From Halorarum halobium (lineage in GTDB: Archaea > Halobacteriota > Halobacteria > Halobacteriales > Haloferacaceae): 64,000 nucleotides of DNA. How positions within the stretch are numbered: the stretch's first letter is position 1; every line of letters begins with the position of its first letter. Below, piece by piece: positions 26,119-56,145 of this stretch. Made by a program: the position numbers and the translations under genes. The DNA lies in contig NZ_CP134950.1 in NCBI RefSeq assembly GCF_032116555.1, positions 62,001 through 126,000 on the forward strand, in the 5' to 3' direction. A model generated the notes under the pieces. The model worked only from the letters and a program-made list of their open reading frames with translations. It was not told the origin of the DNA and did not search any database.

Positions 26119-26159
26119 TTAACCAACAAATCCCTGTGGAGATGGCTTCCGTTGGTTAA
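26119..26159. repeat. TTAACCAAC-N23-GTTGGTTAA inverted-repeat site 1
   Basis: Arms 26119-26127 and 26151-26159. Confidence 0.9.
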
Positions 26160-26234
26160 CACGGTGAGTACCCTCAAGTCCGACCACAGTCACGTGGAGT
26201 GTCTATCCGCGCCGGCGAGTGGTGAGGCGCTTCG

Positions 26235-26423
26235 ATGAATCAGCAAGTCGAACAGGGCTACCGGATGCATCGTGTACTCAGCAATCTCAGCCGGCTCGAC
26301 GTCGACCGGTTGGACGATACGGATCGAGAGCGAGTCGAGACCGCGAGAGACCTCCTGGAAGAAGTGAGTCTCCTCACGCGACCAGAGGACGGAAGCGGGC
26401 CAGACGCCCCAACAGACTCCTAA
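26235..26423 (+). CDS. Small hypothetical protein
   Basis: 62-aa acidic ORF with upstream GGTGA SD-like motif. Confidence 0.55.
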   Translation: MNQQVEQGYRMHRVLSNLSRLDVDRLDDTDRERVETARDLLEEVSLLTRPEDGSGPDAPTDS

Positions 26424-26511
26424 CCCGGCGTCGCCGTCCACGCTAGGGGCACCTCCAGAGTCGGTTTATTGTCCCCCAAGAGGAGTGCGGGGCTTCCCCG
26501 CGAGTCCAGAC

Positions 26512-26892
26512 ATGGCGACACTGCAAGCCGCGACGACGTCCACCGGCGCAATCGTATCGGATCCTCAGGCAGTCCGTGAACTCTGTGAGAGCTACTGCTT
26601 CGGGACGCTCAACTGGGAGGTCACCGACAAGGGCGAACTCACCATCTGGGGATATGATGACTTCGAAGTGTACGAGGCGCGCGAGAACGGCCTCCCGGAC
26701 TACGAGGGCGGCATCGTGACCCACGAATTCTTGCGAGAACTCGCCGACCACCTCGAAGTAGACGAGAAGCTCGACATCCAGACAGCCGGGTTCACAAAAT
26801 GTCGCTTCCCGGTGCTAGCGAAGCGGTACGTCGTTCGCGACGGCGAAGTCCTCCACGCGGACCTCAGTTCCCCCAACCCGATCGACGAGTAG
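26512..26892 (+). CDS. Hypothetical protein
   Basis: Acidic ORF after hairpin element 26464-26492. Confidence 0.75.
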   Translation: MATLQAATTSTGAIVSDPQAVRELCESYCFGTLNWEVTDKGELTIWGYDDFEVYEARENGLPDYEGGIVTHEFLRELADHLEVDEKLDIQTAGFTKCRFPVLAKRYVVRDGEVLHADLSSPNPIDE

Positions 26893-26961
26893 AGTTGTTC
26901 ATTCCCCGGGAGGGGTGCGGGGCGATCCAGTCGTGGGTCGCCCTGCGAGGTGATTGTTCAA

Positions 26962-27624
26962 ATGGGCCACCGCGCACTCGTTGCGTACGAACGAACCGAC
27001 GGACAGTACACGCTCCACTACTCTCATTGGGGTGCTGCGAACCTGAAGCTCAAGCACCGAATCTCGGCTAAGTCGCCGTTCGGTGGCGAGGATACCGACT
27101 CGAAGTGGGCGAAGCAGCTGCTGGCGGAACTGGCCGATGGCCTCGAGGCAGATGCGGTCGACGGCTACCTCGCTGACGAGGACCGACCGTCGACGGTCGT
27201 CGAGCCGAAGCCCCGCGCCACCGCGCTCACCCTCGACGAGATCGTCGCTGACCATCTCGACTACCTCCACCACGAGGCGTTCTTCGTGGTGTCGACGACG
27301 TTCGAGGTGACCGCCTACCGGACGCTGTGGTTCGGCCTGCAGTACGACTCGGAGACAGTCGAACAGGGAGAGACGGTCGGGAACGGCGCGCTCGCGACGG
27401 TGCGCTGGTACGACGGCGAGCCGGTCGGCGACGGCCACCTACAGGGACAGTTCGCGGCCCTCAAAGACGTCGTCGGCGACATGCTCGACAAGGGCGTCTT
27501 CACGCCGTCGACGGCGAGACAGTACCTAAAACGGAAGCTGGCCGAGCGGGTCGGAGACCGACAGGAGCTTCGCATTCCGACCGGGGAATCACCCTTCGAG
27601 AAGGCGAGCCTCGGCAAGACGTAA
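26962..27624 (+). CDS. Conserved haloarchaeal plasmid protein (DUF6735-like)
   Basis: MGHRALVAYER...YSHWG; after hairpin element 26895-26922 and GAGGTGA SD. Confidence 0.7.
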   Translation: MGHRALVAYERTDGQYTLHYSHWGAANLKLKHRISAKSPFGGEDTDSKWAKQLLAELADGLEADAVDGYLADEDRPSTVVEPKPRATALTLDEIVADHLDYLHHEAFFVVSTTFEVTAYRTLWFGLQYDSETVEQGETVGNGALATVRWYDGEPVGDGHLQGQFAALKDVVGDMLDKGVFTPSTARQYLKRKLAERVGDRQELRIPTGESPFEKASLGKT

Positions 27625-27661
27625 CACCAATCCCTTAGTGGATACCGGGAAACTCCCCAGT

Positions 27662-27946
27662 ATGTCAAATCAACCTAAAGGCGACATTCGTGTTTGGCTT
27701 GTCGAACGGACGTACTCCGATGATGAACAGAACCTGATTATCCTCACCTACGCAACACCCGATGGCGAACAGTACTATCGGAAGGAACGAGCACTAACCT
27801 CATTCACCGACGTCCGAGATACGACGGCAGCAGTCGACGCTGAACCCGACAATCTCGGCACGGTCAATGACTCCGACCTCCAAGAACAATACGCGGCCGA
27901 AGCGCAGCGAATGGAGGAGGTCCACGACCCGGACGACGTGATCTGA
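27662..27946 (+). CDS. Hypothetical protein
   Basis: Acidic 94-aa ORF. Confidence 0.7.
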   Translation: MSNQPKGDIRVWLVERTYSDDEQNLIILTYATPDGEQYYRKERALTSFTDVRDTTAAVDAEPDNLGTVNDSDLQEQYAAEAQRMEEVHDPDDVI

Positions 27947-28008
27947 GGTCCACTGGTCGACAACGCTGCAGGCCATGGGTTATGTCGTAGTAGGCCGTAC
28001 ACGAGGAT

Positions 28009-28758: not shown

Positions 28759-28818
28759 CGCACGGGTTTGGAATATTCCAACAAAGACATATCGAACTCC
28801 CGCTCCTACCGTAAGGTG

Positions 28819-31185: not shown

Positions 31186-31307
31186 CTCTGCACGCGGAAA
31201 GTGCGGTCAGGACGCTCCTCTTTCGCGACTTTCCTTCGCTATATCGAGACAATTTGCAGTTTGTCTGGGGCAGTAGAGACTGAGCCCCTCCGTAGGCTCG
31301 TGATTGG

Positions 31308-31730: not shown

Positions 31731-31837
31731 ACGCGATCTCGCGAAGCGAGTTTTTCGAGCGCCGGCGATGGGTGCCGGCGCACCGAACAGACAGTGTCGA
31801 GCAGCGCCCGGTGAGTCGGCGTTCCGAGGTGAACCAG

Positions 31838-32338: not shown

Positions 32339-32344
32339 TTGACA

Positions 32345-32710: not shown

Positions 32711-32782
32711 AAACGGACGCACGTAGGGTGTTTTTCGGCCGGGGCGGAGAGAGTGACCCGGTCGAACCGGGTCGGCCCAACA

Positions 32783-39073: not shown

Positions 39074-39204
39074 TGGAGAGGCTTCGACTGTCGCGAGCCA
39101 CCCACCAGCTGCTCGAACGCGGGGTCGAGGCACTCGAGAAAATCGGTCGCGAACTGGAACGGTACAACGATCGGCAAGAGCAGACTGACGGCACTGACTC
39201 GTGA
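39073..39204 (+). CDS. 43-aa microprotein (MERLRLSRATHQLLERGVEALEKIGRELERYNDRQEQTDGTDS)
   Basis: TGATG coupling upstream and GTGA overlap downstream. Confidence 0.6.
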   Translation: MERLRLSRATHQLLERGVEALEKIGRELERYNDRQEQTDGTDS

Positions 39205-39866
39205 CTCAGACACGTTCTCCCGGCCAGCGGCGGAGTACCGGGTTCCAGTACACGCGCACTCCCGAGGGGTGCTCGTGTCCCATTCATCGCGACGGCCAGC
39301 CGGTCACGGCGCCGCTCGGGTTGCGGTTCGCAGAGCGCGTCCATATCGAATCGATCCCGCGGCACGTCGCCGGCGCGATCTACGAAGCCCATCATTCCTA
39401 TATGGACAGTGTTCCCCGGACGAACCTCGTTCATCACGGGCTCTGTTACCAGGACCAGCTACTGGGTGCGATTACGTGGCGCTATCCGCTGATTCGCTCG
39501 CTGGAGTACGACGGGACGCGATACGAGGGTGACGAGATCGTCGAGGCAGCACGGATCTGCATCGGCGTCGACTTCCCGAACCTCGCCTCTGCTGCCCTCG
39601 CCCGGTCGATGGAACGGTTCGTGCGTCGGCACGGCCGGCGGCGAGGCGTTCGCCTTCTGCTGACGTTCGTGCGAGCTGACTTCGATGGCTCGATGATCAA
39701 AGCGCTCAGAGACAAGGGCTGGCACTATGCCGGAAAAACGGAGCCCGGACAGGCAGGTAACCGACCCGACAAGCAAATCCGAGAGCGGCCAAAGTGGCGG
39801 TTCCTCTGTGAAGTTCCTGATGAGTCTGAGCGGGAACAGTCCTCACTCGGACGGTGGGCTCCGTGA
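39201..39866 (+). CDS. Mom-like GNAT-fold DNA-modifying protein
   Basis: HHSY...G..Y...LLGAI...EAARI...NLAS..L...LLTFV...G...KA...GW...GKT...KWRF pattern of the Mu Mom family. Confidence 0.6.
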   Translation: MTQTRSPGQRRSTGFQYTRTPEGCSCPIHRDGQPVTAPLGLRFAERVHIESIPRHVAGAIYEAHHSYMDSVPRTNLVHHGLCYQDQLLGAITWRYPLIRSLEYDGTRYEGDEIVEAARICIGVDFPNLASAALARSMERFVRRHGRRRGVRLLLTFVRADFDGSMIKALRDKGWHYAGKTEPGQAGNRPDKQIRERPKWRFLCEVPDESEREQSSLGRWAP

Positions 39867-40405
39867 CTACGAATGCTCGTCTCGATGAGTTCACAGCAGA
39901 GGAAAACTCGGACAACCAGCCGGAGCGCGATCCATGTGTAGTCGAGCGACTGTTGGACCCGATATCACCGGCCCAGGGGCTGCGACTCATCTCCGGCCAG
40001 GGTGACCCGGTGTACCTCCAAAACAGGGGAACTGAACGCTACCTGTTCCGGGATGCCCACGAGCGGTGGTTCATCCTCCAGCCCTCGGCCAAGGAGTCGG
40101 TCGACGACTTCGTTCGCTGGGTGTATCTCCCCGACGGCAAACCCGCCGAGATCGCCCAGACTGCGATCCGTCAACGGACGGTTCGCGGCTACCGGTACGT
40201 TCAGCGAAGCGGAGCTCCCGAGCCGGTTGGGACGACGGTGACAGCGATGTACGTCAGTGAGCCCTGGCCCGACGATGTCTACGAGTGTGGATCCTGCGGA
40301 GCCGAGTTCGAGTCGCCCCGTGCTCACGCCCTTCACTGCTGGGAGGACCATCCCTGGGTTCCGAACCCGGAGCAGGTTCGGCTACGCCGCTCCAGCACCG
40401 AGTAA
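39863..40405 (+). CDS. Hypothetical protein with C2H2-type zinc finger
   Basis: YECGSCGAEF...H..HC...H. Confidence 0.7.
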   Translation: MTTNARLDEFTAEENSDNQPERDPCVVERLLDPISPAQGLRLISGQGDPVYLQNRGTERYLFRDAHERWFILQPSAKESVDDFVRWVYLPDGKPAEIAQTAIRQRTVRGYRYVQRSGAPEPVGTTVTAMYVSEPWPDDVYECGSCGAEFESPRAHALHCWEDHPWVPNPEQVRLRRSSTE

Positions 40406-40438
40406 CGACAGTGCGACAGTTTCCCGACGGTGGGTCGA

Positions 40439-40479
40439 TTAACCAACAGACAGCCCCTTCCTAGGTCAGTGTTGGTTAA
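40439..40479. repeat. TTAACCAAC-N23-GTTGGTTAA site 2
   Basis: Arms 40439-40447 and 40471-40479. Confidence 0.9.
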
Positions 40480-40571
40480 CGTGGTGTTGTTGTTGCGCCC
40501 GGCAGAGGGGCGCAGGGCGCGAGACGATGCAGGCAGCCGTCGATGAGCGTTCCTGCGTCGGGGTGACTACG

Positions 40572-41732: not shown

Positions 41733-41798
41733 CGCCGTGACGGTGACGTAGTCGTCTGTTCTGTCTTTCTCCCCCTTCAGGGGTGGAGGGCGATAGAG

Positions 41799-42020
41799 AT
41801 GGAGAAATCAGCGGACAACAGCGGGGCTGACGACGAATTCCCACCCGAGAAGCGCCTCGAAGCACCGAACTACCGACTGGTCAAGGCCGGGATCGCGACG
41901 ATCCCCGATATGGAGACACTCCGTGAGTGTGTCGCCTACGAAAACGCCCACCAGAATCGGACGCAGATTCTGCGTCGGCTCCAGTGGAAGGCCGAAAAGC
42001 TGCGTGAGGATGAGGAGTAG
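41799..42020 (+). CDS. Small hypothetical protein
   Basis: YENAHQNRTQILRRL; weak hairpin element 41763-41790. Confidence 0.7.
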   Translation: MEKSADNSGADDEFPPEKRLEAPNYRLVKAGIATIPDMETLRECVAYENAHQNRTQILRRLQWKAEKLREDEE

Positions 42021-42029
42021 CGATCATTC

Positions 42030-42071
42030 TTAACCAACAATCGGAGTCAGCCAACACCTCGTGTTGGTTAA
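42030..42071. repeat. TTAACCAAC-N24-GTTGGTTAA site 3
   Basis: Arms 42030-42038 and 42063-42071. Confidence 0.9.
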
Positions 42072-42144
42072 CGGTGAGAGTACTCCGTTTTTCGGGCCCC
42101 TGAATGGGTGCGGGGCGACCAGCACCCCCCTCGCGAGTTCAGTC

Positions 42145-43146
42145 ATGTCCTTCGATTTGAGTCCAGACTCCAGCACGGCTAGCGACATCGATGCCGCCAG
42201 ACAAGCGGACCATGTGGCGTTCCTCCATCGAGTTCCATTCGTCGCTGATGCGTTGGCCCTCGGATTTCTTCCCGGGTTTCGAGAAGACTGTGGGTATCAG
42301 TCAGACCAGTACCTAAACCTCGAGATTCCTGTGGGGATGCTCGATAACGACTTCCGCAATCCCGACCTGGAACGCTTCGTCGATCGATTCTTCGAGCACG
42401 AGCCACAGGTCGGTGTCATCGGCGACATCTTCGAACCAGATGCCGTCGACGCCCACGTCGCTGCCGCTCGCGAAATCCGAGCGAGCTACCCCGAGGCCGA
42501 GCTCATCGTCGTTCCGAAGTCGCGGGCGGTGATCGACGCGATACCCAATACCCTCGTCCTCGGGTATTCACGGGGATACGCCGACCGCCTGGCCCACGAG
42601 TTCTCCGACCCAGCCGATTGGAGAGGGCGACGCGTCCACATCCTCGGCGGGAGTCCGCCCAAGCAGCTCAACGCCATTCGACAGCTGACCAGACCGACTC
42701 TCACGGACGAGCCACCAGCCGACATCGTCGGCGTCGACTGGAACGGGCTGCATCGCGGCGCACAGTTCGGCGAGTTCTGGACGGCCGACGGCTGGGACGA
42801 CAGCGGTCGCGACGCCGACCACGTCACTGTCCGAAAGACGGTGCGTCACAGCCTCGCCCGGGTCCGCGAGTTCTGGCAGCAACACGGAGTCTGGCCTGAA
42901 TCGACACCGCAAGACGAGGGGCTGACCGTCGAGTACGAGGGTCCGAGTCCTGCCGATCTCGAGGACGCCGCCTGTACCGAGTGCGGGACGAACGTCTGGC
43001 GAACTCGCCGCGGCCCGTACGTCGCCGAATACGATACCGGCGCAATCTGTGGATACTGCAGTTACGAGTGCTACTTCAGCCACCGTCATCGAAACAACCT
43101 GGAGGAGATCGCCGGTGAGCAGAGCGTCTACCTCCCGCCGGCGTGA
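42145..43146 (+). CDS. DUF6610-like protein, possible TGT/DpdA-related barrel, with C-terminal zinc finger
   Basis: MLDND, VHILGGSP, VGVDWN; CTECG...CSYEC; hairpin element 42087-42116. Confidence 0.6.
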   Translation: MSFDLSPDSSTASDIDAARQADHVAFLHRVPFVADALALGFLPGFREDCGYQSDQYLNLEIPVGMLDNDFRNPDLERFVDRFFEHEPQVGVIGDIFEPDAVDAHVAAAREIRASYPEAELIVVPKSRAVIDAIPNTLVLGYSRGYADRLAHEFSDPADWRGRRVHILGGSPPKQLNAIRQLTRPTLTDEPPADIVGVDWNGLHRGAQFGEFWTADGWDDSGRDADHVTVRKTVRHSLARVREFWQQHGVWPESTPQDEGLTVEYEGPSPADLEDAACTECGTNVWRTRRGPYVAEYDTGAICGYCSYECYFSHRHRNNLEEIAGEQSVYLPPA

Positions 43147-43217
43147 CTTTGCGACCTGTTTTTCGTGCCCCCCGAGAGGGCGAGGGCTCCTTCGAAAGCT
43201 CTCAGAGGTGACTTCCA

Positions 43218-43580
43218 GTGAGTCAACAACAGAGTCCCGACAACGTCTCGATCGACGACATCCCAGTCGATATCGCAAACACGCAATCAGAGAAGATCAA
43301 TCCCGCCGATGTCCCCGACGAGATAGAGTCTATCACCCGTGGGCTCGCCGGTGAGCAGCCGCCGACGAATCCCATAGTGGTTCTCAAAGCGGCTCGCTGG
43401 TGGTATCTACACGGCAAGGGCGGGTCGGATCCCGCCTTCCAGTGGGCTATCGAGTGGGCACGTCACCTTGCGACCGACACGCCTAGCGACGTCGAGCAGT
43501 TCGACGAGTTCCTCGAGTACCTTGTTTCCCTTGACTTCGCGCAGAATCGGCAGACACTTCGAGGAAGAGCAAACGACTGA
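43218..43580 (+). CDS. Hypothetical protein
   Basis: GAGGTGA SD; hairpin element 43158-43187. Confidence 0.7.
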   Translation: MSQQQSPDNVSIDDIPVDIANTQSEKINPADVPDEIESITRGLAGEQPPTNPIVVLKAARWWYLHGKGGSDPAFQWAIEWARHLATDTPSDVEQFDEFLEYLVSLDFAQNRQTLRGRAND

Positions 43581-43610
43581 TTCACCAGATACGTCAAGAG
43601 ATTCGGATTG

Positions 43611-44069
43611 CTATTCCTCCAGATCGTCAGCAGTAACAAGTCCATCAGGCGTTTCCGCCGGCGTGTAACTCTGATCCTCGCCCATTTTATTCTCCTCAGA
43701 GAGTGAATTCTCGAAGTAGCTCCCGTACTCTGCCTCCATATCGGGAGCGAGTTTAGTAAGGCGTTCATGGGCTTTCTGATATGCTCGGCGGCTGGCTTCG
43801 TCATCAGACAGATCTTCTGGTGCCTCGAAATCCTTTGCCGAGTCCCACACGATCTGCCATCTATCCCCCGTATGGTCGACCGCGATCAATCCACGATTCG
43901 GGAGATTCAGTAATAACTGAATTACGACCGGGCTGTCGTTCGTGTAGTATCCACGCACCGCGACAACCTGCTCGAACATATCATGCTCCGCCAAACTATT
44001 GACAATCTCACCAGAAAGCGGTTGGTCTGGGAGCGATTCAAGTACTCGTGAATCATCAGTTTCGGTCAT
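43611..44069 (-). CDS. Hypothetical protein
   Basis: Acidic ORF, lower GC, co-oriented with the phosphoesterase. Confidence 0.65.
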   Translation of the reverse strand: MTETDDSRVLESLPDQPLSGEIVNSLAEHDMFEQVVAVRGYYTNDSPVVIQLLLNLPNRGLIAVDHTGDRWQIVWDSAKDFEAPEDLSDDEASRRAYQKAHERLTKLAPDMEAEYGSYFENSLSEENKMGEDQSYTPAETPDGLVTADDLEE

Positions 44070-44103
44070 CTGATGGGATGTTACCTCCCCCAGTATTTAA
44101 CAG

Positions 44104-45003
44104 TCAATCCCAACGCACGAATTTCCCGTCATCATTCCGAACGAGCGGTCCGAGTGGATCAGGCCGATCACTTGATAGATACTCAGCGAATTCCTCCTGA
44201 AATCCAGGTGGTGGAGACTCCCATAGCCCGATTGCGTACTCAATCAGTTCATCCTCTGCTGCGAAATCTCGATTCGTCTCCGTGGTAACACCATAGAACG
44301 CTGCGCTCGCCATCTCTCGCATCAGTAGAATTGGCTGCCAGCAATACATACAGCTGTGGTAGTCTGGGCCGATTAGAATCCCTCGTTCCTGGTGTTGTTG
44401 ACAGACAGTAGTATCGAGTCGCCCAATATTTCGGAGGTCAATGTCGAACGGGGGTTCGTCCTCAACGGTCACCACGAAATAGCCACCATAGATAGCTGAA
44501 TCGGCCTTTGAGTCGTCACGGTACAGAAACGCCGAGTTGAGCATCCGCTCCTTGTATCGGCCCGTATGCGTATGGCCACAGAAGTAGGCACGACCGGGAA
44601 AATGGTCAATCATTCCCGTCTCTTCCCAATGAGTGACGAGTATTCCGTCGCTCGATACCGCTTCCGGGTCTTGGGTGAACTGTTGCCCGCCAACCGTGAC
44701 GACGTCGTCCGAGGGGATATGCGTCCCAACGCTCAGATCGTATTCAAGCTCGCCGTAGTAATCTCGATTGCCATAGACGTAGAGAAGCCCGTTTTCAGCG
44801 CGGTTAGCGAGGGTTTCAAGATATGGCTCTACAGCTTGGAGCTGTTCAACACCGGCATCTTCCCCTTCGTTATGAGCATTTGTGAAGTCTCCCACGTGAA
44901 TGATGAAGTCGAAACGTTCATCTTCCGTTTCAGCAGCTACCCGTCTCAGAGCTTCTGTATTTCCGTGATTATCCCCCATTACGAGGAACTGTTGTGTCGA
45001 CAT
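44104..45003 (-). CDS. Calcineurin-like metallophosphoesterase with C-terminal Cys/His extension
   Basis: GDNHG, HVGDF, GNRD, VTH, GHTH motifs. Confidence 0.85.
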   Translation of the reverse strand: MSTQQFLVMGDNHGNTEALRRVAAETEDERFDFIIHVGDFTNAHNEGEDAGVEQLQAVEPYLETLANRAENGLLYVYGNRDYYGELEYDLSVGTHIPSDDVVTVGGQQFTQDPEAVSSDGILVTHWEETGMIDHFPGRAYFCGHTHTGRYKERMLNSAFLYRDDSKADSAIYGGYFVVTVEDEPPFDIDLRNIGRLDTTVCQQHQERGILIGPDYHSCMYCWQPILLMREMASAAFYGVTTETNRDFAAEDELIEYAIGLWESPPPGFQEEFAEYLSSDRPDPLGPLVRNDDGKFVRWD

Positions 45004-45205
45004 AGCATTCGATTTGATTCTTGAGTATATGACTGCGGTGTTGTGAAATCACGCTCAACACCAGAACAACGGCTACGTCTCCATCTCTAATCGAATCCCT
45101 GCTAGCTATTCAGTCGCCCCATTGAGCAACCGCCGATGTGTTTTTTGGCCCCCGAAGGGTGCGGGGCGCTCATCCGGACGTGAGCGTCGCCTGAATTGAG
45201 TGATA

Positions 45206-46132
45206 ATGTTATCGAGTGCCAATTCGCGGGTTAGCTTCGGTGATTCGGATACCCGACACGATCAGATGCATAGTACCATCGAACAGTGGATCGACGACCT
45301 CGTCGCCGGCGTCGACGACGCGCAGGCCAGCGCGGAGTTCCAGGAGTGGCTTGACGTCCAGAGTCGCTTTCACGACTATTCCTACCGGAACACGCTCCTC
45401 ATCAAGCGGCAGTGTCCCGAGGCGAGCCGGGTGGCGGGCTACCGGACGTGGCAGGAGGAGTTCGATCGCCACGTCACGGAGGGTGAGTCGGCCATCTGGA
45501 TCTGGGCACCGATCATCACCAAGCAGTGCCCGGAGTGCGAGAACTCCCCGAGCTACCACGAGGACAGCGACTGTGAGTACGATGAGACCCCGCCCGAGGA
45601 GTGGTCCGAGGGCCTGGTCGGGTTCAAGCCCGCGCCGGTGTTCGATGTCTCCCAGACCGAGGGCGAGCCGCTTCCTGATCTCGACACGGAAGCGACCGGG
45701 GACACCGGCGACCTCGTCGAGCAGTTGACTGCCGCCGCTGATGACCTCGGCGTGACGGTGCGGATCGTTCCAGCCGAGGAGTGGACCCACGGCGAGGCGA
45801 AGGGCATCTGCGAGCAGCTGAGCCTCGTCGACGTCCAGCCGCTCGTCGAGGTGCGTGATCGGGAGAACGAGGCCGACCTCGCGCGGACGCTAATTCACGA
45901 GTACGCCCACGCTCTGCTCCACTTCGACATCGACGACGACACCGAGCGAGCGAAACGCGAAGTCGAGGCCGAGGCCGTCGCGTACGTCGTCGGGCGGTAC
46001 TGTGGACTGGATACTAGCGGGTCGGCGTTCTACCTCGCTGCGTGGGAGTCGGACGATTCCGAGGTCGTTCGCGACCGACTCGGGCGGATCAGTCGGACGG
46101 CAGAGGAACTCATCGACGTTCTCGAAGGCTGA
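45206..46132 (+). CDS. ardC: ArdC-like ssDNA-binding/antirestriction protein with zincin domain
   Basis: FHDYSYRNTLLI..Q...VAGYRTW...R.V..GE.AI.I.AP, VFDVSQT, HEYAH, EVEAE; hairpin element 45138-45167. Confidence 0.8.
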   Translation: MLSSANSRVSFGDSDTRHDQMHSTIEQWIDDLVAGVDDAQASAEFQEWLDVQSRFHDYSYRNTLLIKRQCPEASRVAGYRTWQEEFDRHVTEGESAIWIWAPIITKQCPECENSPSYHEDSDCEYDETPPEEWSEGLVGFKPAPVFDVSQTEGEPLPDLDTEATGDTGDLVEQLTAAADDLGVTVRIVPAEEWTHGEAKGICEQLSLVDVQPLVEVRDRENEADLARTLIHEYAHALLHFDIDDDTERAKREVEAEAVAYVVGRYCGLDTSGSAFYLAAWESDDSEVVRDRLGRISRTAEELIDVLEG

Positions 46133-46150
46133 GCAGCTGACTTCGCGGGT

Positions 46151-46190
46151 TTAACCAACAGATTCGTCGGTCACTCACTTTGTTGGTTAA
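46151..46190. repeat. TTAACCAAC-N22-GTTGGTTAA site 4
   Basis: Arms 46151-46159 and 46182-46190. Confidence 0.9.
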
Positions 46191-46242
46191 GTTTTTCAGC
46201 GCCCGCCGAAGGGCGGAGGCGCATCTCACCCTCCGTCAAACC

Positions 46243-47058
46243 ATGACTGATCGATATCTCACGGCAGTTCTCGAGGAAGCCGAGCGCGTCGCAGAGCAGC
46301 ACAATCAAGTCGCGCAATCGGCGGACAACCAGGCCCACGAGTACCTCCGATACGCTGTCCTCCGACTCCTCGAAGGCGAGACCGGAGAACGACCTCACGC
46401 CTTGCAACTCGACGGGGTAACCGTCGGATACGGGAGCGACGAAGCGATGTTCGACAGCTGGAGTGACGCCGTCGAGTGGTGGGACCATATTCCGCCGCAA
46501 GAAGGGTGCACTCGGTTCCGCATTTTCTATCCTGCCGAGTACGAGACGGTTCCTCGAACCATCGTCGACGCGATGGGAGCACTCGGCGCATGGCGCGTCT
46601 GGTCCGGTGACGCTGCCGCCTGCGGGTCCTATGACCACCGAGACCGTCGCGAAGTCCACTACCTGTGGCGAGAGGGGCATCCGATCGAAGCCCGGCTGGT
46701 TGACCGGCTGCAGAGCCCTGACGCCGCTACGCCTGACGGGGGCCAGACAGGAGATATGCGTGATCGGATGGTCGTCGCAGAGTCTTCTTCTCAAAGCGAC
46801 GATCTCGATCCCCGAACGAGGCGAGCCGTCACCGAGGAAATGTCGATTTCGTTGCTCGAAAAAGGCGGTCGGTATGAGGTGCGATCCGGGTCGGGAAACC
46901 GATACGAAGTCGACGTCGTCAGTGAGTCGTGTTCCTGTCCCGACTGGCAGCAGCGAGCACCCGATGGAGGATGCAAGCATCTGCGGAGAGTCGATCTCGA
47001 GATCAAGCGCGGCAGTGTTCCACGGCCCGACGGGCGACTCCCAAAGACATCGATTTGA
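46243..47058 (+). CDS. Two-domain protein with C-terminal SWIM zinc finger
   Basis: YEV...CSCPDW......CKHL; hairpin element 46191-46222. Confidence 0.8.
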   Translation: MTDRYLTAVLEEAERVAEQHNQVAQSADNQAHEYLRYAVLRLLEGETGERPHALQLDGVTVGYGSDEAMFDSWSDAVEWWDHIPPQEGCTRFRIFYPAEYETVPRTIVDAMGALGAWRVWSGDAAACGSYDHRDRREVHYLWREGHPIEARLVDRLQSPDAATPDGGQTGDMRDRMVVAESSSQSDDLDPRTRRAVTEEMSISLLEKGGRYEVRSGSGNRYEVDVVSESCSCPDWQQRAPDGGCKHLRRVDLEIKRGSVPRPDGRLPKTSI

Positions 47059-47201
47059 GGCCTTTTCGCCGAGGGACCGTTTTTTCGGAGCATATCGTCT
47101 ACCTCGGAACGTCGTCTACTCCCGTCGCTGCAATCCACTTGTTCGGTTCGTTCTCCAGGATGTCCCCAATGTAGAAGGACACGTACGACATTAGTCGAGC
47201 T

Positions 47202-47969
47202 ATGGAATTCTTCACGGCGGCCGACGTTCTCAGCCACAGAACGGCCGCGACACCAGATGAGCCCGTAACTGTCGATCTGGATGACTCGATTCAGAATGCC
47301 TTGACGCTCATGCTGGAACACGATTTTGACCAGCTCCCAGTGGTGAGCGATGATGGTGTTGAGGGTACAGTCACGTACAAATCGGTCGCAAAATACGTGA
47401 AGTCAATGGACGATCCGCGGGTCGAGGAGACCTCCGTCAAAATCGCCCTGAATACGAATCCCGAGTTCGTGGACCGAGACCACGATATTTTCGAGTTGTT
47501 CGATACGCTTGCCGAGGATGACTATGTCCTGATTGGCGACCAAGATGGCCTGGACGGGATCCTGACCCGCTACGATATCCTCTATTTCCTCGAACATCAG
47601 GTCGAACCGTTCCTCCAGATTGGCGAGATCGAGGAAAGTCTCCGCCACCTGTTCCGTGCATCCTTTGATGACCTAGACCAGGCTATCGACGAGACGTTCG
47701 CCGATCGCGCTGAGCATGACGAGAGCTATGAGACGCCTGATTGCCCCGAAGACTTCTCGTTCGATGACTATCGGATGTTCATAATGCGAAACCTCGATCA
47801 CCTGCCACCACGCCTCTCACAGGAACGCGATATGGTCGAAAGCCTGCTTGAAGATATTCGCGAGACGCGGAACGCGCTTCTCCATTTCCGGGCCGAAGCC
47901 GATGAGGTTGATCGGGACCAGCTAGATATGGCCCATGGGTACTTCACTGGCATTGCAAGTACCGTGTAG
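47202..47969 (+). CDS. CBS-pair + HEPN (Swt1-like) protein
   Basis: MLEHDFDQLPVV...G.VT / GILTRYD CBS pair; IEESLR...RNALLH (Rx4H). Confidence 0.75.
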   Translation: MEFFTAADVLSHRTAATPDEPVTVDLDDSIQNALTLMLEHDFDQLPVVSDDGVEGTVTYKSVAKYVKSMDDPRVEETSVKIALNTNPEFVDRDHDIFELFDTLAEDDYVLIGDQDGLDGILTRYDILYFLEHQVEPFLQIGEIEESLRHLFRASFDDLDQAIDETFADRAEHDESYETPDCPEDFSFDDYRMFIMRNLDHLPPRLSQERDMVESLLEDIRETRNALLHFRAEADEVDRDQLDMAHGYFTGIASTV

Positions 47970-48067
47970 GGCACCACCAAGTCCACCGAACTTCACCGGT
48001 ACTCTCAATCACTGACAGAGATTAAATATCGAGTCTACAATGGGCAATTGTAGAGGTAGCTCTCGTT

Positions 48068-49567
48068 ATGGATTGGCCGTATTTAACGCAGACGTCCGGA
48101 CCTTCGCCCGATGCGAGCGAAAACCAGTATTTCACGATCGAGGGCAACGTCCGGAACCACTATGTGGACTTCCCGAACCATCTCGTCGACGCGTTCTTCT
48201 CGAAGGTACTGCACGAAGTGCCCGAAGCCTATCCGAATGATCCCGAGAACCAGTACAAGACGGCGCTCGAAGTCACAGAGCGATATAATGAGGCACTTGA
48301 TGAGATGGGGCTGGACTTCCTCCAGCTCCGAATTGTTGACCGGTCCTCATCACGCCCCCAGCCGTACTATGGGCTCCAAATCCATGGACTGGATAGCTCC
48401 AAGTTCGATGCCTTTCTCGACTCGTTCGCAGAGACAGACGAAGCGACGCTAGAGGAGAAATACCACTATCTCCACGGCTCAAAATACCCGGTCTCGGAAG
48501 TGGCCAGCAAATCGCAATCGGATTCAATTGCGTCGAGAAAGCAGGTGCAGGAGGCTGTCAAAGCGCGAGTTGAATCGGAGAAGGACTCGATCACAAAGAC
48601 GACGGAGACGTTGCTCTCCAAGATCGACGAATGGCGTGACGAACTCCAAACGTACTGGCGGCGGACGACGTGGCAACGGTTCAATACCTTCCCCGCAGTG
48701 CATCTCTACCTGCTGGAGATGGAAAGCATCATCACCAATATCGATGTGCTTGCAGACCGCGGTTCGATCCCGCCGTGCTACCGAGAACTACGGAAGCTCT
48801 TGGAGAATTTGAGCTGGTCGGTGTTCGACGATCTCCTGTTCATCAACGCAGAGTACGCTACCATCTACGATGACTCCTCAGTACCGGCGCATACCCCGCC
48901 ACGTCCATTCTTGTCCGCTAATCAGCAATGGTATGACTGGGTTAGAGGTCGACAGACTCCGAGTTTTGAGACACAGCGCAGTCAGCTCCGGGACCGTCTC
49001 TACGACCACAGTACCCGGTCACGACTCAGCTACGACGACAAGTACGGCATCACCAAGGGTACCATCACCGAAGTGCTCAAGACGAACCTCTCCTACCCGC
49101 TCTACATCGCGCTGGCAGGACTCGAAGTAGAGACCACCGAGTCGGTCGAATCGTTCGTGACTCCTGTCAACCCTGCCCATCTCAAGCCTGGCGTTCGCCG
49201 CACGATACAGAATGTCGTCCGATCACTGAAAGAGGGGCGACGGCTTGGCCAGCTTGACGAGGAGTTCATCGATACTCTCACCGACGAACTACTTGACATC
49301 AAAGCCAACTACCTCGTACCGCCGTTCCCATCCAACAATCACGTCATCGGTTACTTGGATTCGCTCTGGCACCACGAGCTTCCCTCCCGCCTCGATGACT
49401 TCTACGGCGAGTACAGCTTTTTCATTCACTCATATCCGTCTTCGTGGCAGATCCACCCTCACTCTTCCATCCTCGAGTTCAAGATTCTCGCTCACGAGAT
49501 TGATCGATTCAGCCACGCGGTTTCTACCCTCATCGAACAGTATCTCACAACGTACCATCGGAATTGA
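48068..49567 (+). CDS. Hypothetical helical protein, possibly HEPN-like
   Basis: RELRKLLE...Y..YS.FIH pattern reminiscent of DUF5677-type HEPN. Confidence 0.55.
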   Translation: MDWPYLTQTSGPSPDASENQYFTIEGNVRNHYVDFPNHLVDAFFSKVLHEVPEAYPNDPENQYKTALEVTERYNEALDEMGLDFLQLRIVDRSSSRPQPYYGLQIHGLDSSKFDAFLDSFAETDEATLEEKYHYLHGSKYPVSEVASKSQSDSIASRKQVQEAVKARVESEKDSITKTTETLLSKIDEWRDELQTYWRRTTWQRFNTFPAVHLYLLEMESIITNIDVLADRGSIPPCYRELRKLLENLSWSVFDDLLFINAEYATIYDDSSVPAHTPPRPFLSANQQWYDWVRGRQTPSFETQRSQLRDRLYDHSTRSRLSYDDKYGITKGTITEVLKTNLSYPLYIALAGLEVETTESVESFVTPVNPAHLKPGVRRTIQNVVRSLKEGRRLGQLDEEFIDTLTDELLDIKANYLVPPFPSNNHVIGYLDSLWHHELPSRLDDFYGEYSFFIHSYPSSWQIHPHSSILEFKILAHEIDRFSHAVSTLIEQYLTTYHRN

Positions 49568-49580
49568 GGGAGGCCGGTGA

Positions 49581-49621
49581 TTAACCAACAATCTATGGCT
49601 CTGGCGAGTTGTGTTGGTTAA
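49581..49621. repeat. TTAACCAAC-N23-GTTGGTTAA site 5
   Basis: Arms 49581-49589 and 49613-49621. Confidence 0.9.
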
Positions 49622-49635
49622 TACGAAGGGTCCCA

Positions 49636-49956
49636 ATGTCCTACGAGCCACCGACGCCGCCGGCAGACCTTCCGGCGGACATCGTCGACACCCTCAACGA
49701 ATACTCCTCAGACCAACTCCGCCACGTATCACGCTATGCGGAAGCGTTGGCCGAGTACAAAGAGCGAACGGACCGTCTCGAGTCGGACAACGACGACGAG
49801 GACGAAGAGCGCCCACCCGATCTCCCGGACGACGTCCTTACCAAGGCAACGATCACGATCAAGGAAATCAACGATAACCGCTACTACTACTGGCAGTGGC
49901 GAGAGGGCGAAACGGTAACCTCCAAATACAAAGGTCCAGTCAAGCCGGGCGACTGA
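49636..49956 (+). CDS. Small conserved haloarchaeal protein (YYYWQWR motif)
   Basis: KEINDNRYYYWQWREG...SKYKGP. Confidence 0.75.
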   Translation: MSYEPPTPPADLPADIVDTLNEYSSDQLRHVSRYAEALAEYKERTDRLESDNDDEDEERPPDLPDDVLTKATITIKEINDNRYYYWQWREGETVTSKYKGPVKPGD

Positions 49957-50849: not shown

Positions 50850-50970
50850 TACTTCGTTGTTCGGGTGGTGCGTGCAAAAGCGTTTCGCCCTAATACGAAT
50901 CGGGTAGGAGCGAATCGGTCTATGATGAGGTCGCCACATTAAAGCACGCTATCCGAGTATGCACGGGTAG

Positions 50971-51546: not shown

Positions 51547-51647
51547 GCGGACACCTGTGACCTGACGTTCGCTGGCGAAGTCGGCTGGTATTCGATAGCC
51601 CAGTACCCGATTGGCGATGGCTGCAGAATGTCGTGGACGAAAGGGGT

Positions 51648-52157
51648 CCCCCCGGAGTGTGAATGGGACCCGTCAGTCCGACACCCCTCGGTGTGAATGG
51701 GCAGCCACCCTCCTCAACACGGCGTTCCATTTCGTCATTGGAAGACGAGGCAAAGCGGTGCCAGCGAAACGGTTTGGCGGATATCCCACCCCCACACCCC
51801 TCAGTGTGAATGGTCCCACCACGTGGGGCACCACGATTAAGCTGCTCCTAATAGCGGAACCCGACCAGCGCGGACGCCCCTCCGCCTCCGCGCTGGCGCG
51901 TCGGCTTCGGCACAAGTGCCTTGCCTTTAAACAGGATACTACTCGGAGGACTGTTTAGACTCGTGTGTATTAAAATTATCTATTACTGCGGTGCGACACA
52001 CTAGCCAACCACTGCAAACAGCCAATTTTACCGTATTACCCGCTCTACGGGTTGTTTCAACCTCACGAGACTGCTAACGGCTCTCCAACGACACCAGCGT
52101 CATCTAAACAGCTGCCATCCCCTATGCCATACCATTCACACCGAGGGGTGGGGGTGT
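51648..52157. other. Putative replication origin: ORB-like repeats flanking an AT-rich unwinding element
   Basis: CCATTCACAC(T/C)..GGGG repeats at 51648-51666, 51681-51700, 51793-51813 (minus) and 52132-52157 (plus); AT-rich 51925-52040. Confidence 0.7.
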
Positions 52158-53425
52158 CACCATCCCATCAACGTCTGGAGCTCCGGTGTCGAATTGATCA
52201 GCCCAGTTCGAGTGCTCTCGACGTCACCCTGGAGTGAGTACGATCTGAACTTTCCTTGATCGCCGCCTTCCTTCTTCTTGGATTCGAGAACGCCAGTCGT
52301 CACGTGTTTGTTCAGGAGTTCAAGTGCGCGATTGTACCCCTTCGGCTCCACTTCAACATCTCTTGCGACTGTTTGGTACACCTCGTGGATCTCGGACGTA
52401 CGGAACCACTCCTTCTCCGGGTTGTTCCGATCAAGTCGTGTGAGTGCAAAGAGGAGTAACTTCCCGGACAACGGCGTCCCTTTCACCATTTCCATAAAGA
52501 GTTCGACCTCGACGAGTTCGTCGGCCTCGTGGACGTGCTCAGCGGTCACGATGTCGTCTCCTTCCTCGTCGGCAATTTCACCCGCATTGCGGAACAATCG
52601 AACTGCGCGTCGAGCGTCTCCGTGTTCTTCAGCTGCGAGTTCGGCTGTTGTTGGTATCACTTCGTCATCGAGGACTCCGTCGTAAAACGCGTCGCGGCGA
52701 TTCTCGAGGATCGCGATAAGCTGATCTTCTTCGTACGGCGTGAACGTTCGGTGTTCCGGTTGGAGTGTGGATTGCACCCGGGACTCGATTTCGCCTTTGA
52801 ATTCGATGTCGTTTGAAATCCCGATCGTGAGGACTGGGAAATCCACGTCGTCTTTCGATTGTGTCCGTGAAAGCGTGTAGAGTACTTCGTTGACCTCGCC
52901 GTGCTTGTCGATTTCGTCGATAATGACGACGAGCCCACCCGAGAATTCCCGCTGAACGACGGGCCACAACTTCTGATCCCGGTAGTGTTCTGCTGAAAGG
53001 CCCTGATAGGGAACTTCAAGCGGGTTTTCCGCTTTGGCGTTCACCTGTTCTGCAATCTTTCGGAAGGTGGAGGTATACGTAGAAATCGGGTCCGGGTTAA
53101 TGTAGGCTGTAACGATGGGCGAATCCGTCCCGTCCGTTGCTGCTTCGAGGCGCTCACAGACGTGCCTTGCAACTAGTGTCTTCCCTGTCCCGGTTTCACC
53201 CCACTCTAGAACGTTGTCCGGAACGCTGTTCGTCCGCATTTTCCGGAGATTCTTCGCCAAGAACGTGATGTGGTCGTCACGGCCGACGATCCGGTTGGCG
53301 TCTGGTACGTTATCGATTTCGAGCAGCCACGGTTTTTCAAAAATATTCGATTCGTCTTCTTCGTTGTCCTCGTCGACATTCAAGATCTCGTCGACGGTCG
53401 TTTGCGTGGATTCGTTGTTTGGCAT
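52157..53425 (-). CDS. cdc6: Orc1/Cdc6 replication initiator
   Basis: IVGRD, GETGTGKT, IIDEID, ISND, F.PY, GDARRA, C-terminal wHTH. Confidence 0.95.
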   Translation of the reverse strand: MPNNESTQTTVDEILNVDEDNEEDESNIFEKPWLLEIDNVPDANRIVGRDDHITFLAKNLRKMRTNSVPDNVLEWGETGTGKTLVARHVCERLEAATDGTDSPIVTAYINPDPISTYTSTFRKIAEQVNAKAENPLEVPYQGLSAEHYRDQKLWPVVQREFSGGLVVIIDEIDKHGEVNEVLYTLSRTQSKDDVDFPVLTIGISNDIEFKGEIESRVQSTLQPEHRTFTPYEEDQLIAILENRRDAFYDGVLDDEVIPTTAELAAEEHGDARRAVRLFRNAGEIADEEGDDIVTAEHVHEADELVEVELFMEMVKGTPLSGKLLLFALTRLDRNNPEKEWFRTSEIHEVYQTVARDVEVEPKGYNRALELLNKHVTTGVLESKKKEGGDQGKFRSYSLQGDVESTRTGLINSTPELQTLMGW

Positions 53426-53489
53426 AGCCGGACCAATTCATCCCATTCACATATAGGTTGTCCACCCACGGTGTGATTGATTTCAAATC

Positions 53490-53616
53490 CCATTCACACT
53501 GAGGGGGGTGTAACTGATCCAGGGTACTCCCCCCTCAGTGTGAATGGATTCGGCTTAGAGAAAGAGATTCACAATATGAATACATATCACTCCACCATTC
53601 ACACTCCGGGGGGTGT
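53490..53616. promoter_or_regulatory. ORB-like repeats upstream of cdc6
   Basis: CCATTCACACTGAGGGGGGTG at 53490-53511, inverted copy at 53529-53547, variant at 53595-53616. Confidence 0.75.
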
Positions 53617-53752
53617 CGACGTTGTCGCCCACTTGTGGTTTTTTCTCACCGAAGACGATCTCCGTCCATTGACCCATGTATCTCATGGGTCCATCTATCG
53701 ATAAAACCGAAATATGGTGGTAAAGAGCCGCTATCGGCATCTCAGAACAAGG

Positions 53753-55918
53753 TCATCCATTCCAGGTCATTGTAAAATCGGTCAACTCTACCTCTCGTGT
53801 CTCGGCGAGACTCCGTCGAATATCCGTCTGATCCCAACCCAAGGGCGAGAGGACGCTTTCGACAGCGCGGACGAGTTGTGTCTCGTAATACGATGGATCG
53901 TATGTTTCGACCTCTTCGTGGGCGAGTACGACGCGTTCCCGTGAGGATTTCTCGTCATCAACCACGACGTACTCAATATCTTGCCCGGGATGGACAGCGA
54001 GGTCCTGGTCGCGAGCCCGTTTCAGCGCTGCGACGTTCTGTGTGTTCTGGGTATAGCCGTCGAGTGGTTTGGAGACACGATTCCGTTCGACGAGTCGCTC
54101 CACCGCTACCTCACCGGCATGGAGTTTCGAGACTGCACGGTCGAGACAGCTGAGGACTGCCTCTGGTGACTGCGTCGTATCGAGGCGATCGAGGCATTCT
54201 CGCTGGACGTCCTCAATAAATGGTGGCGTCGACCGCTGGCGGGCTTCGATGCCTCTGATCTTGAACTCGTCCTCATCGACGACCTTTCCGAAATACTTCG
54301 TTAGTGCGCCGGCGTCGCTCTCGCGTTGTGGGACGAACGCCACCCAGTCATAGTGCGATTCATACTCGAGGCGGATGTCGACTGCTTCGGTGATCTCGGT
54401 CGCGAGGGCCTCGAGGGACTCGCGGTCCTCGTCGTCGACGTCGGGGTTTGGGGTCACCCAGATGGAGTCGACGATGCCGTGGACGACACGCCAGCCGCCG
54501 GCTTCGAGGCGTTGCTTCGCCGTCAACAAAATCTCGCGCGCGAACGCATTGATTGCCTCGTGGCACTCGATGCGCCCGTATTTGGCGTTGTTAAAGCCTT
54601 GGTACCCAAAGCAGGCGACGAGGATCCACTTCAGCGCCCCCGACCGCCCTTCGAGTTCGTCGAGGCGCTCCTCATCAGGCTCGTCACGCTCTTGTTCGCG
54701 ACGGATGGCGGCTTTGATCTCGTCGCGCGCATCGATGATCGGCTGGAGGACGTCGACGAGGTAGCCCCGGTCGTCACAGATCGAGTACCCGAGTCCGGGG
54801 ACGTCCTCGCGGTCGCGATGGCACTCGCAGCGAATCACGTCCGGCGAGACGTTGTGCGTGCAGATGATGTTCGGATACAACGAGGAGAAATCGAGTTCGT
54901 GGACATCCTCGTGGAGTCCGACCTCAGGTGCGAAGATGAACCCACCACGATCGGCATCGTGGAGCACCCCTGTTGATTTGAATTTCTCGTGGCGCCAGGA
55001 GTGCCACGGGACGAGGACGCCGCGTTCGTGGGCTTCACAGATCTGGATGGCTGTGAGGATGTTGCCGATCGACGCCCAGGCTGCCTCCTGTATCGGCTTG
55101 CGCGACCGCGAGACCAGGTCGAGGACGCCGTCGATGTTGGTCTCGCCAAAGAAGAACGTGTTCGATCGGTCGATGATTGCTCTTCCGGGCACGTTGTAGC
55201 GCGCCGGCGAGTGCCCGACGCGGCCGTAGCTCGCGTAGGTCGAGCGGCTCGCGAGCTGCTGGAAATCGCCCTCTGGGGTCCGGCTCAACGAGAAATTGTC
55301 GGCGCCATTGCTGGCAGCCATCTCGTACAGGGTCGGGACGATCTCGCTCGTCGAGCAGACGAGGACGTCCGGATCGTGGTCGTCAAGCGCAGCTTGGACT
55401 GTCGTCAGGATATCTGCTGGCGGGCCCGTGACCGTCTCGCCGCCGACGGCAAGTTCGGTATACGCATCGCCTGTTGTCTCTGTGAGTGGGACGTCGAGTC
55501 GCAGCGTCGAGAGATCGCTCGTTGGCGTCGGATCTACATCGTTCTCGAGACAGTACCGAAACTCCCGCGAGAGATCGACATTGAAGCAGGCGAGATCCCC
55601 CACAGGGTACTCGGACAGCTGGCGTGCCTGTCGAGCCAGCGAGGTGATCCGATCGATGTGGACAACGTCGACGGCGAGGACGTCCTCGTCGTCGCGACGG
55701 AAGCCTGGCCGCCGGGCGACGATATCGGTCGCGACGACGTCCGGGTGCCGTTCGTACACGCTGCGGAGTCTCGTGAGGTCGATCTCGTCATCTGGTGCGC
55801 GGGATGCGACGTAGAAGCGCGGCGAGTAGTCTTCGCGTTCGGTCGCGACGGCGCCGTCAGCCGTCGTCTCCCATTCGAGGACACGGCCATCATCAAGGAA
55901 ATCGAATGTGAATGGCAT
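53753..55918 (-). CDS. polB2: Family B DNA polymerase, PolB2-type with degenerate motifs
   Basis: LDFSSLYPNII, KWILVACFGY, HGIVDS in place of YGDTDS; no clear exonuclease motifs. Confidence 0.85.
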   Translation of the reverse strand: MPFTFDFLDDGRVLEWETTADGAVATEREDYSPRFYVASRAPDDEIDLTRLRSVYERHPDVVATDIVARRPGFRRDDEDVLAVDVVHIDRITSLARQARQLSEYPVGDLACFNVDLSREFRYCLENDVDPTPTSDLSTLRLDVPLTETTGDAYTELAVGGETVTGPPADILTTVQAALDDHDPDVLVCSTSEIVPTLYEMAASNGADNFSLSRTPEGDFQQLASRSTYASYGRVGHSPARYNVPGRAIIDRSNTFFFGETNIDGVLDLVSRSRKPIQEAAWASIGNILTAIQICEAHERGVLVPWHSWRHEKFKSTGVLHDADRGGFIFAPEVGLHEDVHELDFSSLYPNIICTHNVSPDVIRCECHRDREDVPGLGYSICDDRGYLVDVLQPIIDARDEIKAAIRREQERDEPDEERLDELEGRSGALKWILVACFGYQGFNNAKYGRIECHEAINAFAREILLTAKQRLEAGGWRVVHGIVDSIWVTPNPDVDDEDRESLEALATEITEAVDIRLEYESHYDWVAFVPQRESDAGALTKYFGKVVDEDEFKIRGIEARQRSTPPFIEDVQRECLDRLDTTQSPEAVLSCLDRAVSKLHAGEVAVERLVERNRVSKPLDGYTQNTQNVAALKRARDQDLAVHPGQDIEYVVVDDEKSSRERVVLAHEEVETYDPSYYETQLVRAVESVLSPLGWDQTDIRRSLAETREVELTDFTMTWNG

Positions 55919-56104
55919 TTTCTATCTATCGTCCTCCAGCATAGGCACGCCAACGTACGCTCACCCGATAATCGGCAGTGTGTTGCTTCCGGAGTTCAGG
56001 GAATCTGTGTGACACGGCTGCGAAGGGCGTGGAACGCGAATTTGGGGCTTTCCATCCATTTTCCACAAACACTTCCGGGGCGCTGATCCCCTTCTCCGTC
56101 CATC

Positions 56105-56145
56105 TTAACCAACAAAACCCACGCTTGCTACGGGATGTTGGTTAA
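56105..56145. repeat. TTAACCAAC-N23-GTTGGTTAA site 6
   Basis: Arms 56105-56113 and 56137-56145. Confidence 0.9.

Follow-up and report, generated by a model that had tools for sequence, protein, structure and literature searches.

The 64,000-nucleotide stretch of the Halorarum halobium genome analysed here (the window, positions 62001-126000 of the plasmid contig C2, NZ_CP134950.1) carries six copies of an inverted-repeat site in which two conserved arms face each other across a spacer of 22-24 nt at gene junctions. The site is real and widespread. The reading towards which we lean is that the sites are operators of the plasmid's own DUF6788 protein, a putative DNA-binding protein that would act as an autoregulated repressor, keeping down its own expression and that of nearby backbone genes. 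That DUF6788 and the sites form a pair, and that DUF6788 regulates its own gene, is likely on sequence grounds. An initial annotation of this DNA had offered the operator of a global repressor, a parS-like site or a recombination site as explanations; to these the present analysis adds a mapped promoter overlap, a tree with five arm variants, negative results in tests of gene shuffling, and the occurrence of sites in viruses without DUF6788.

Geometry and distribution of the site

All six sites (Table 1) match the two-armed pattern exactly, at the positions and with the spacers (23, 23, 24, 22, 23 and 23 nt) first reported for them, and 100 dinucleotide shuffles gave no match. Allowing one mismatch adds a single stray arm to the 12 site arms in the window. 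Every one of the 16 exact half-sites in the 3.68-Mb genome has its partner, giving eight sites (seven on C2 and one on C1), and pairs with one or two mismatches at spacers of 21-25 nt occur nowhere in it. By our own gene calls (made from an amino-acid score for all genes outside named records), the sites are intergenic, as annotated, and lie 20, 33, 9, 18, 13 and 42 nt after a stop codon; three of them do precede the hairpin element described with them, a T-run/GC-hairpin motif at 40495, about 42087 and 46199. The spacers had been called unrelated, which holds within the replicon, but orthologous sites in relatives share spacers by descent.

Site anatomy was evaluated in 42 regions (1.32 Mb) picked for carrying sites or a SWIM-like gene (SWIM-like, DUF932-like and PolB2 are in part presumed family labels). 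Here, of 328 exact half-sites, 312 pair with another exact one and 11 with a partner that has one mismatch, and five stand alone. The spacer is 22-26 nt in the 312 cases (22 nt in 10, 23 in 158, 24 in 132, 25 in 8 and 26 in 4, with 290 at 23-24) and 11 nt in two cases; at its tenth base the arm has A in 88% and G in 11%. Where a junction is fixed, the site is either perfect or missing altogether: exact sites stand upstream of DUF6788 in 42 of 48 cases, of the SWIM-like gene in 26 of 38 and of DUF6610 in 17 of 20, and at the site 1 junction in 10 of 11 loci, as against 0 or 1 exact sites at six control gene ends. Two sites with perfect arms have spacers of 9 and 11 bp (L286:29802-29828, on pHV4 before HVO_A0063, and G085:C3 near 88844); both lie near insertion-sequence-like genes and can be viewed as natural spacing mutants.

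The AT content of the spacers is phased, being high in the centre and low on the shoulders (differences of 0.21 and 0.26 in non-redundant sets of 91 23-mers and 91 24-mers; reached in 0 of 2,000 shuffles), and the AT-rich centre is equally strong in convergent gaps. Covariation at inner spacer pairs 2-8 is at shuffle level, with a slight excess at the tenth arm base and outer pairs 4-5; beyond this small excess nothing covaries past the arms, and we rejected a hairpin or single-stranded DNA structure on this ground. Centroid folds mostly show an arm stem of 10-13 bp, longer at site 1 only. The fixed spacer, the phased AT content and the lack of hairpin covariation together indicate a protein-bound duplex, and the paired arms at fixed spacing back the protein-recognised geometry that had been proposed for the window. 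We infer a bent duplex bound at both arms, with arm centres about three turns apart. Unrelated sites have about 27% of spacer positions in common; this value, and site-less orthologous junctions that, among those listed, have decayed in place, led us to reject a miniature inverted-repeat transposable element (MITE) or other short mobile repeat. Spacers as acquired foreign DNA were rejected as well, because matches in 6.1 Mb are at shuffle level apart from one-mismatch self-matches and one related site.

The pattern search across Halobacteria that the initial annotation had suggested found the site in 211 of 301 genomes (about 70%), at up to 30 copies per genome, and a reversed control pattern gave one match across the same genomes. 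Among the first 80 loci listed from a scan of part of GTDB, 77 belong to Halobacteria; the three bacterial matches among them equal the chance expectation of three to four and were set aside. The site also occurs at 70 loci on viral contigs and in record CP183372.1, a pHdsl9-3-like plasmid. In a text search of the literature with the arm sequence the matches listed are unrelated, topic searches yielded nothing on the motif (subscription literature lies mostly outside their scope), and no paper on DUF6788 or HVO_A0063 was returned by literature text search. Rfam has no match in the window at gathering score.

Probable pairing of the sites with DUF6788

All 120 listed homologs of the protein encoded at 49636-49956, beside site 5, match PF20586 (DUF6788); the window protein itself has no direct DUF6788 Pfam match. 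Its structure model (mean pLDDT 76) has two helices joined by an acidic linker, modelled with low confidence, to three strands. Among 160 genomes, three or more sites are present in 83 of 84 with a close DUF6788 match, 6 of 25 with a distant homolog and 4 of 51 without a match (at least one site is present in 12 of these 51), and the number of sites rises with DUF6788 copy number (rho = 0.58).

The distant homologs, collected by protein search, have different arms in the same geometry just ahead of the start codon. We placed 39 DUF6788 rows in a tree (28 from the protein search, 18 of them with an arm pair, and 11 from named or site-selected loci; nine fragmentary loci and the non-halobacterial loci are omitted). 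In 29 rows an arm pair with at most one mismatch ends within 17 nt of the start, and there are five arm types. Three supported clades each have one arm type and one spacer class of their own: TTACCCCAC (spacer 21), TTATGTAAC (spacer 25-26) and TTAACCAAC, a short-spacer group. The CTAACCAAC rows do not form one supported clade, TTACCAAAC is a single long-branch row, and a clade of eight rows whose proteins are shortened at the C terminus lacks the site. Multiple copies of the variant arms are seen mainly where the corresponding DUF6788 subfamily occurs (TTACCCCAC in 3 of 40 genomes, TTATGTAAC in 2 of 5, TTACCAAAC in 1 of 5, and CTAACCAAC in 7 of 40, with 23, 15, 13 and 6 copies in four); three genomes with a one-mismatch TTATGTAAC site at DUF6788 have no exact TTATGTAAC copy. 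The 23 CTAACCAAC sites of G003:C1-C3 show an inner motif on each side of an AT-rich 5-6-bp centre, an arrangement reminiscent of a recombinase core. At five loci (L341, L342, L343 (G003:C2), L353 and L354) orc1/cdc6 genes are bracketed by two sites.

A mapped promoter is available for HVO_A0256, the DUF6788 gene adjoining orc1/cdc6 on plasmid pHV4 of Haloferax volcanii, which has two DUF6788 genes and several sites. According to the part of PMC4983044 used here, transcription of HVO_A0256 starts 4 nt past the right arm and its TATA box, at -28, lies in the left half of the spacer, which shows that the site straddles the DUF6788 promoter at this gene. The left half of DUF6788-linked spacers is conserved (38 distinct spacers), and by analogy site 5 of the window is predicted to hold a TATA-like stretch in its left spacer half, with a transcription start near 49625. 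Genome counts, the promoter overlap at HVO_A0256 and the arm-type tree thus all speak for the link between the sites and the 49636 protein that a co-occurrence check had been proposed to assess. Two further starts in the start table of PMC4983044 lie 26 and 40 nt past a right arm; for the four exact sites in the 25-70-kb part of pHV4, that table lists no start within 70 nt past an arm. For HVO_A0050-A0063 it lists no primary start, only internal or antisense ones, which is consistent with repression.

In the mechanism that we propose, a DUF6788 dimer would be held together by its N-terminal helices, and the two C-terminal three-stranded domains would each sit on one 10-bp arm, with three helical turns between the arm centres and the spacer bent. 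At its own gene the bound dimer would cover the TATA region. At other copies neighbouring promoters may be damped once DUF6788 has built up to a sufficient level after plasmid entry, and the outcome would be a burst of establishment-gene expression. The identical arms might occasionally be used as crossover points, which we read as a side effect.

Several observations weigh against operators of a DUF6788 repressor. Neither fold nor sequence links DUF6788 to a known DNA-binding domain: Foldseek returned E > 0.3 and VIA best Z scores of 4.9 and 3.9 (values that leave room for a known fold), the best E among PDB sequences was 0.054, Atlas gave only DUF6788 or unnamed clusters, and no ParB domain matched in the window protein or its 120 listed homologs. 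Non-halobacterial DUF6788 loci have no convincing repeat, with arms of at most 7 bp in the 23 loci of this kind among 29 examined, and common plasmid ancestry alone may yield the co-occurrence of DUF6788 and sites. HVO_A0256 is transcribed although its site is present, and silent genes need not be repressed. Sites are found in convergent gaps, in one locus with both facing stop codons inside the arms; in tandem gaps the upstream stop is closer to the site than the downstream start in 69 of 96 cases, and oriented spacers show no TATA pattern. Sites also stay with upstream genes when the usual partner is absent (ArdC 8 of 15, 73-aa gene 6 of 12), a site stands upstream of ArdC itself in only 1 of 42 cases, and a DUF6788 match is lacking in 38 of 40 virus records with sites. 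As a separate observation, read from translations, DUF6788 genes of non-halobacterial archaea appear to adjoin transposase-like open reading frames (L370, L375 and L386).

Dispersed copies and competing explanations

For the copies dispersed over the backbone, repression of backbone genes is moderately probable and the best reading, ahead of a roadblock to transcription, recombination and plasmid maintenance. The operator of a global repressor is also the best of the three functions first offered for the sites, and is clear for the DUF6788-linked copy only. In loci selected for carrying sites, the site occupies 49 of 232 divergent, 109 of 649 tandem and 24 of 196 convergent gaps on plasmids and genomes, and 2 of 23, 18 of 142 and 7 of 16, respectively, in viruses; the median distance from stop codon to site is 26 nt. 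DUF6610 retains its site in six of six cases, and sites lie 47-190 nt upstream of several backbone genes. A TATA box in every spacer was rejected, given the lack of asymmetry in 96 oriented sites and an AT centre just as strong in convergent gaps.

Convergent-gap sites and viruses without DUF6788 are not explained by a simple operator model. Among near-complete site-bearing virus records, 1 of 16 has a DUF6788 match, and scanning 15 virus records for the motif (11 in full, four to 40 kb) revealed none; the families that these viruses have in common with C2 are generic ones only. In one matching record the DUF6788 protein is identical to that of the named phage ChaoS9. The arms are absent from the text of the ChaoS9 paper, and by its gene table the sites fall at borders between shared and unique genes. 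In the related viruses L155, L168 and L224 a site stands before the terminase large subunit gene or between the portal and Mu-F-like genes, never both.

A bolder view, which we think unlikely, is that DUF6788, instead of being a plain repressor, is an architectural clamp encoded by the plasmid that marks module boundaries, blocks read-through and joins arms for module swaps. An arm code per plasmid lineage, with viruses that lack the gene using or sensing the DUF6788 of a co-resident plasmid, would belong to this proposal and is similarly doubtful. The foremost rival to repression, though unlikely, is that DUF6788 at the sites forms a two-way roadblock or insulator against read-through between modules and around origins, own-promoter repression being only feedback. 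The clustering of sites just past stop codons, their position between tightly convergent genes, the orc1/cdc6 genes flanked on both sides in three G003 loci and the sites inside viral head operons would fit a roadblock, but plasmid occupancy is lowest in convergent gaps (12% versus 21% in divergent ones), and the rows of PMC7237163 that cover three pHV4 sites list no RNA 3' end at any of them, a weak test, as the genes look silent.

Less probable again are recombination joints, at which DUF6788 would pair the arms and a plasmid tyrosine recombinase or host repair would swap modules, as with pdif or integron cassettes. Cassette shuffling, as suggested by the initial annotation, survives in part: homology ends at arms and cargo lies between two sites, but junction variability, spacer exchange and empty targets do not agree with it, and the idea is weak. 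In gene maps of several loci ArdC-site-SWIM occurs alongside ArdC-site-cargo-site-SWIM, probably reflecting about two independent events of two-site cargo at this junction, and one two-gene module begins at a right arm in two different contexts. Among the matches listed, metagenome contigs of relatives (other strains) join 40416 to 49576 and 39107 to 40479, and diverge at 46179-46182. In 217 non-independent pairs with a common left flank and unrelated right flanks, the change point falls at the near arm in 67 and the far arm in 20 (87 at an arm) and mid-spacer in 11, but outside the site in 119, and in the comparison with pNG600 only two of six interruptions coincide with a site or lie close to one. 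Coincidence of breakpoints with sites had been put forward as a test; junctions with a site do not vary more than the rest, with a neighbour diversity of 0.68 at nine site-bearing gene ends versus 0.63 at 41 site-free ones (p = 1.0) and a rank correlation of 0.25 (p = 0.064). Spacers drift like the adjacent 20 nt of non-coding DNA (0.88/0.88, 0.81/0.85 and 0.75/0.79). The site is present in 1837 of 1911 flank-pair matches; the other 74, among the matches listed, are one- or two-mismatch or decayed same-length copies, with no clean 41-bp empty target among them, and de novo insertion at TTAA was rejected for want of an empty target among these matches. The two tyrosine recombinases found on C2 each lie at least 28 kb from the nearest site and match XerC/XerA/XerD models only, far below cut-off. 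In Haloquadratum, deletion between direct repeats of 4-20 bp is described in the main text of PMC3119063, and by analogy direct-repeat deletion could account for arm crossovers without a dedicated enzyme.

We consider it improbable that the sites are centromere-like or DNA-organising anchors for DUF6788 in plasmid maintenance, independent of position. All gap orientations are used at similar rates, site number follows DUF6788 copy number, and one variant site is common to DUF6788 and a divergent ParA operon; but distances from sites to particular genes are fixed, and the parS-like function proposed earlier finds neither a ParB domain nor a nearby ParA, the ParA pair of C2 lying at least 40 kb from any site. 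The least probable alternative is that another plasmid or host protein binds the sites, with DUF6788 a constant member of its regulon: the site-bearing viruses and the genomes without DUF6788 noted above would agree with it, but arm type tracks DUF6788 clade, different types coexist in one host, which a host factor leaves unexplained, and the viruses and C2 have only generic families in common.

Known systems and replicon context

The sites work, in our best reading and by analogy, like the operators of Reg576 or KorB, and belong to neither system, nor to the dif, attC or MITE families. Reg576 of the Bacillus conjugative plasmid p576 is a ribbon-helix-helix protein whose target, next to the -35 box, is a dual 7-bp motif in direct orientation (PMC6294495, in part). 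In both cases there is a small plasmid protein, repeated operators (candidate ones here) in a region with ardC and other establishment genes, and an operator on the regulator's own promoter (here the HVO_A0256 start and TATA box, and 29 of 39 tree rows); the transient expression after transfer that is demonstrated for Reg576 is inferred for DUF6788. Unlike the direct heptamers of Reg576, our arms are an inverted pair of 10 bp 21-24 bp apart, the predicted fold is two helices and then three strands, many copies lie off promoters, and there is no regular site upstream of ardC (the 1 of 42 noted above).

The OB operators of KorB are dispersed over the IncP-1 backbone. KorB is a global regulator of IncP-1 plasmids (PMC7022226, in part). 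The likeness is that a single plasmid protein is matched by around ten strictly conserved palindromes scattered along the backbone, part of them remote from promoters; here there are seven on C2 and up to 30 per genome. KorB is itself a ParB protein with a short continuous palindrome, unlike DUF6788, whose site is bipartite.

The integron attC site is an extended hairpin kept by compensatory change, and pdif modules offer a further comparison. Archaeal Xer/dif sites have two 11-nt inverted repeats and a 6-nt spacer (PMC8371274, in part); exact partners at 22-26 nt agree with the earlier exclusion of XerA dif. Our sites resemble dif, pdif and attC in having conserved arms and variable middles at gene boundaries, with stops often inside or just before the left arm, and resemble pdif modules in that cargo sometimes lies between two sites, in a few ArdC/SWIM-like cases where the junction elsewhere has a single site. 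They differ in spacer length, in the lack of an extended covarying hairpin, in the lack of excess shuffling, with site junctions not favoured for gene exchange, and in the absence of IntI (no integron-integrase model among the matches on C2). Nor do they move with the upstream gene as in attC cassettes, being kept with downstream DUF6610 as well as with upstream ArdC. The SNJ2 Orf4 operator was rejected as a different sequence (PMC10123103, in part), as were the PATE/SMR repeats of Haloquadratum, the arms being absent from the main text of PMC3119063.

Contig C2 (158.6 kb; 58% GC, compared with 68% for the main contig) is a type IV secretion system (T4SS) plasmid matching the family outlined in PMC13532300. 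In the outline and part of one section of that paper, pHdsl9-3-like haloarchaeal plasmids carry Orc1/Cdc6, SSB, TFB, ArdC-like, T4SS and XerA-type genes, a gene set that C2 shares, and the repeat and DUF6788 are unmentioned there. Pfam matches of the window proteins include T4SS-like genes, TFB, DUF6610, ArdC, Orc1/Cdc6 and a family B polymerase.

Table 1. Sites and associated features of the window (aa, amino acids)
Feature	Position	Strand	Spacer (nt)	Context
Site 1	26119..26159		23	Between 289-aa gene (25229-26098) and 62-aa gene (26235)
Site 2	40439..40479		23	Between 180-aa gene and conserved 386-401-aa backbone gene
Site 3	42030..42071		24	Between 73-aa gene and DUF6610 (42145-43146)
Site 4	46151..46190		22	Between ArdC-like gene (45206-46132) and 271-aa SWIM-like-motif gene (46243-47058)
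Site 5	49581..49621		23	Predicted over DUF6788 promoter
Site 6	56105..56145		23	Between 125-aa insert gene (56188-56565, minus) and region upstream of family B polymerase gene
DUF6788 gene, 106 aa, likely binder	49636..49956	+		Predicted helical hairpin, acidic linker, three-stranded sheet
Type IV secretion-like genes (TrbL/VirB6-like, VirB4-like, VirD4-like)	609..9407	+		Plasmid-family markers; VirB4-like matches below cut-off
Orc1/Cdc6 gene	52157..53425	-		Genes of this kind often have DUF6788 genes and sites next to or around them
Family B DNA polymerase gene, candidate target gene	53753..55918	-		Pfam match
T-run/GC-palindrome repeat	13675, 26904, 38344, 40495, 41771, about 42087, 43167, 45147, 46199	+		

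The backbone gene next to site 2 has no firm Pfam match, and we presume the label DUF932-like for it; the polymerase we take to be of PolB2 type. Ahead of many backbone genes stands another repeat, on the plus strand, in which a T-run leads into an imperfect, GC-rich palindrome; it might act as a promoter module for the TFB that the plasmid itself encodes, and its T-run at 46191 abuts the right arm of site 4. Repeats flanking orc1/cdc6 at 51648-51813 and 53483-53616, joined to each other in contigs of relatives, are probably origin recognition boxes. A conserved promoter-like element (55919-56104 and 57866-57930) stands before the 314-aa gene with which the polymerase operon opens; in relatives in which cargo separates the polymerase gene from the operon, that gene comes with a separate copy of the element, and in many cases a site lies 139-186 nt upstream. 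The conserved backbone gene at 25229-26098, a cysteine-motif protein, matches the NCBIfam model MBSP1 'biosurfactant protein 1' (400.6 bits, cut-off 320), an odd label. TIR-SAVED and JAB genes plus an unassigned 466-aa gene at 60238-63843 (minus strand) possibly form a defence locus resembling a cyclic oligonucleotide-based antiphage signalling system (CBASS).

If the operator reading is true, the uncharacterised DUF6788 family would acquire a specific DNA target and offer five naturally occurring variants in specificity, and a plasmid family spread across Halobacteria would gain its first candidate backbone regulator. Sites in viruses without DUF6788 raise a plasmid-virus link. Haloferax volcanii suits direct tests of the DUF6788-site system, and orthogonal protein-site pairs could serve as archaeal genetic switches.

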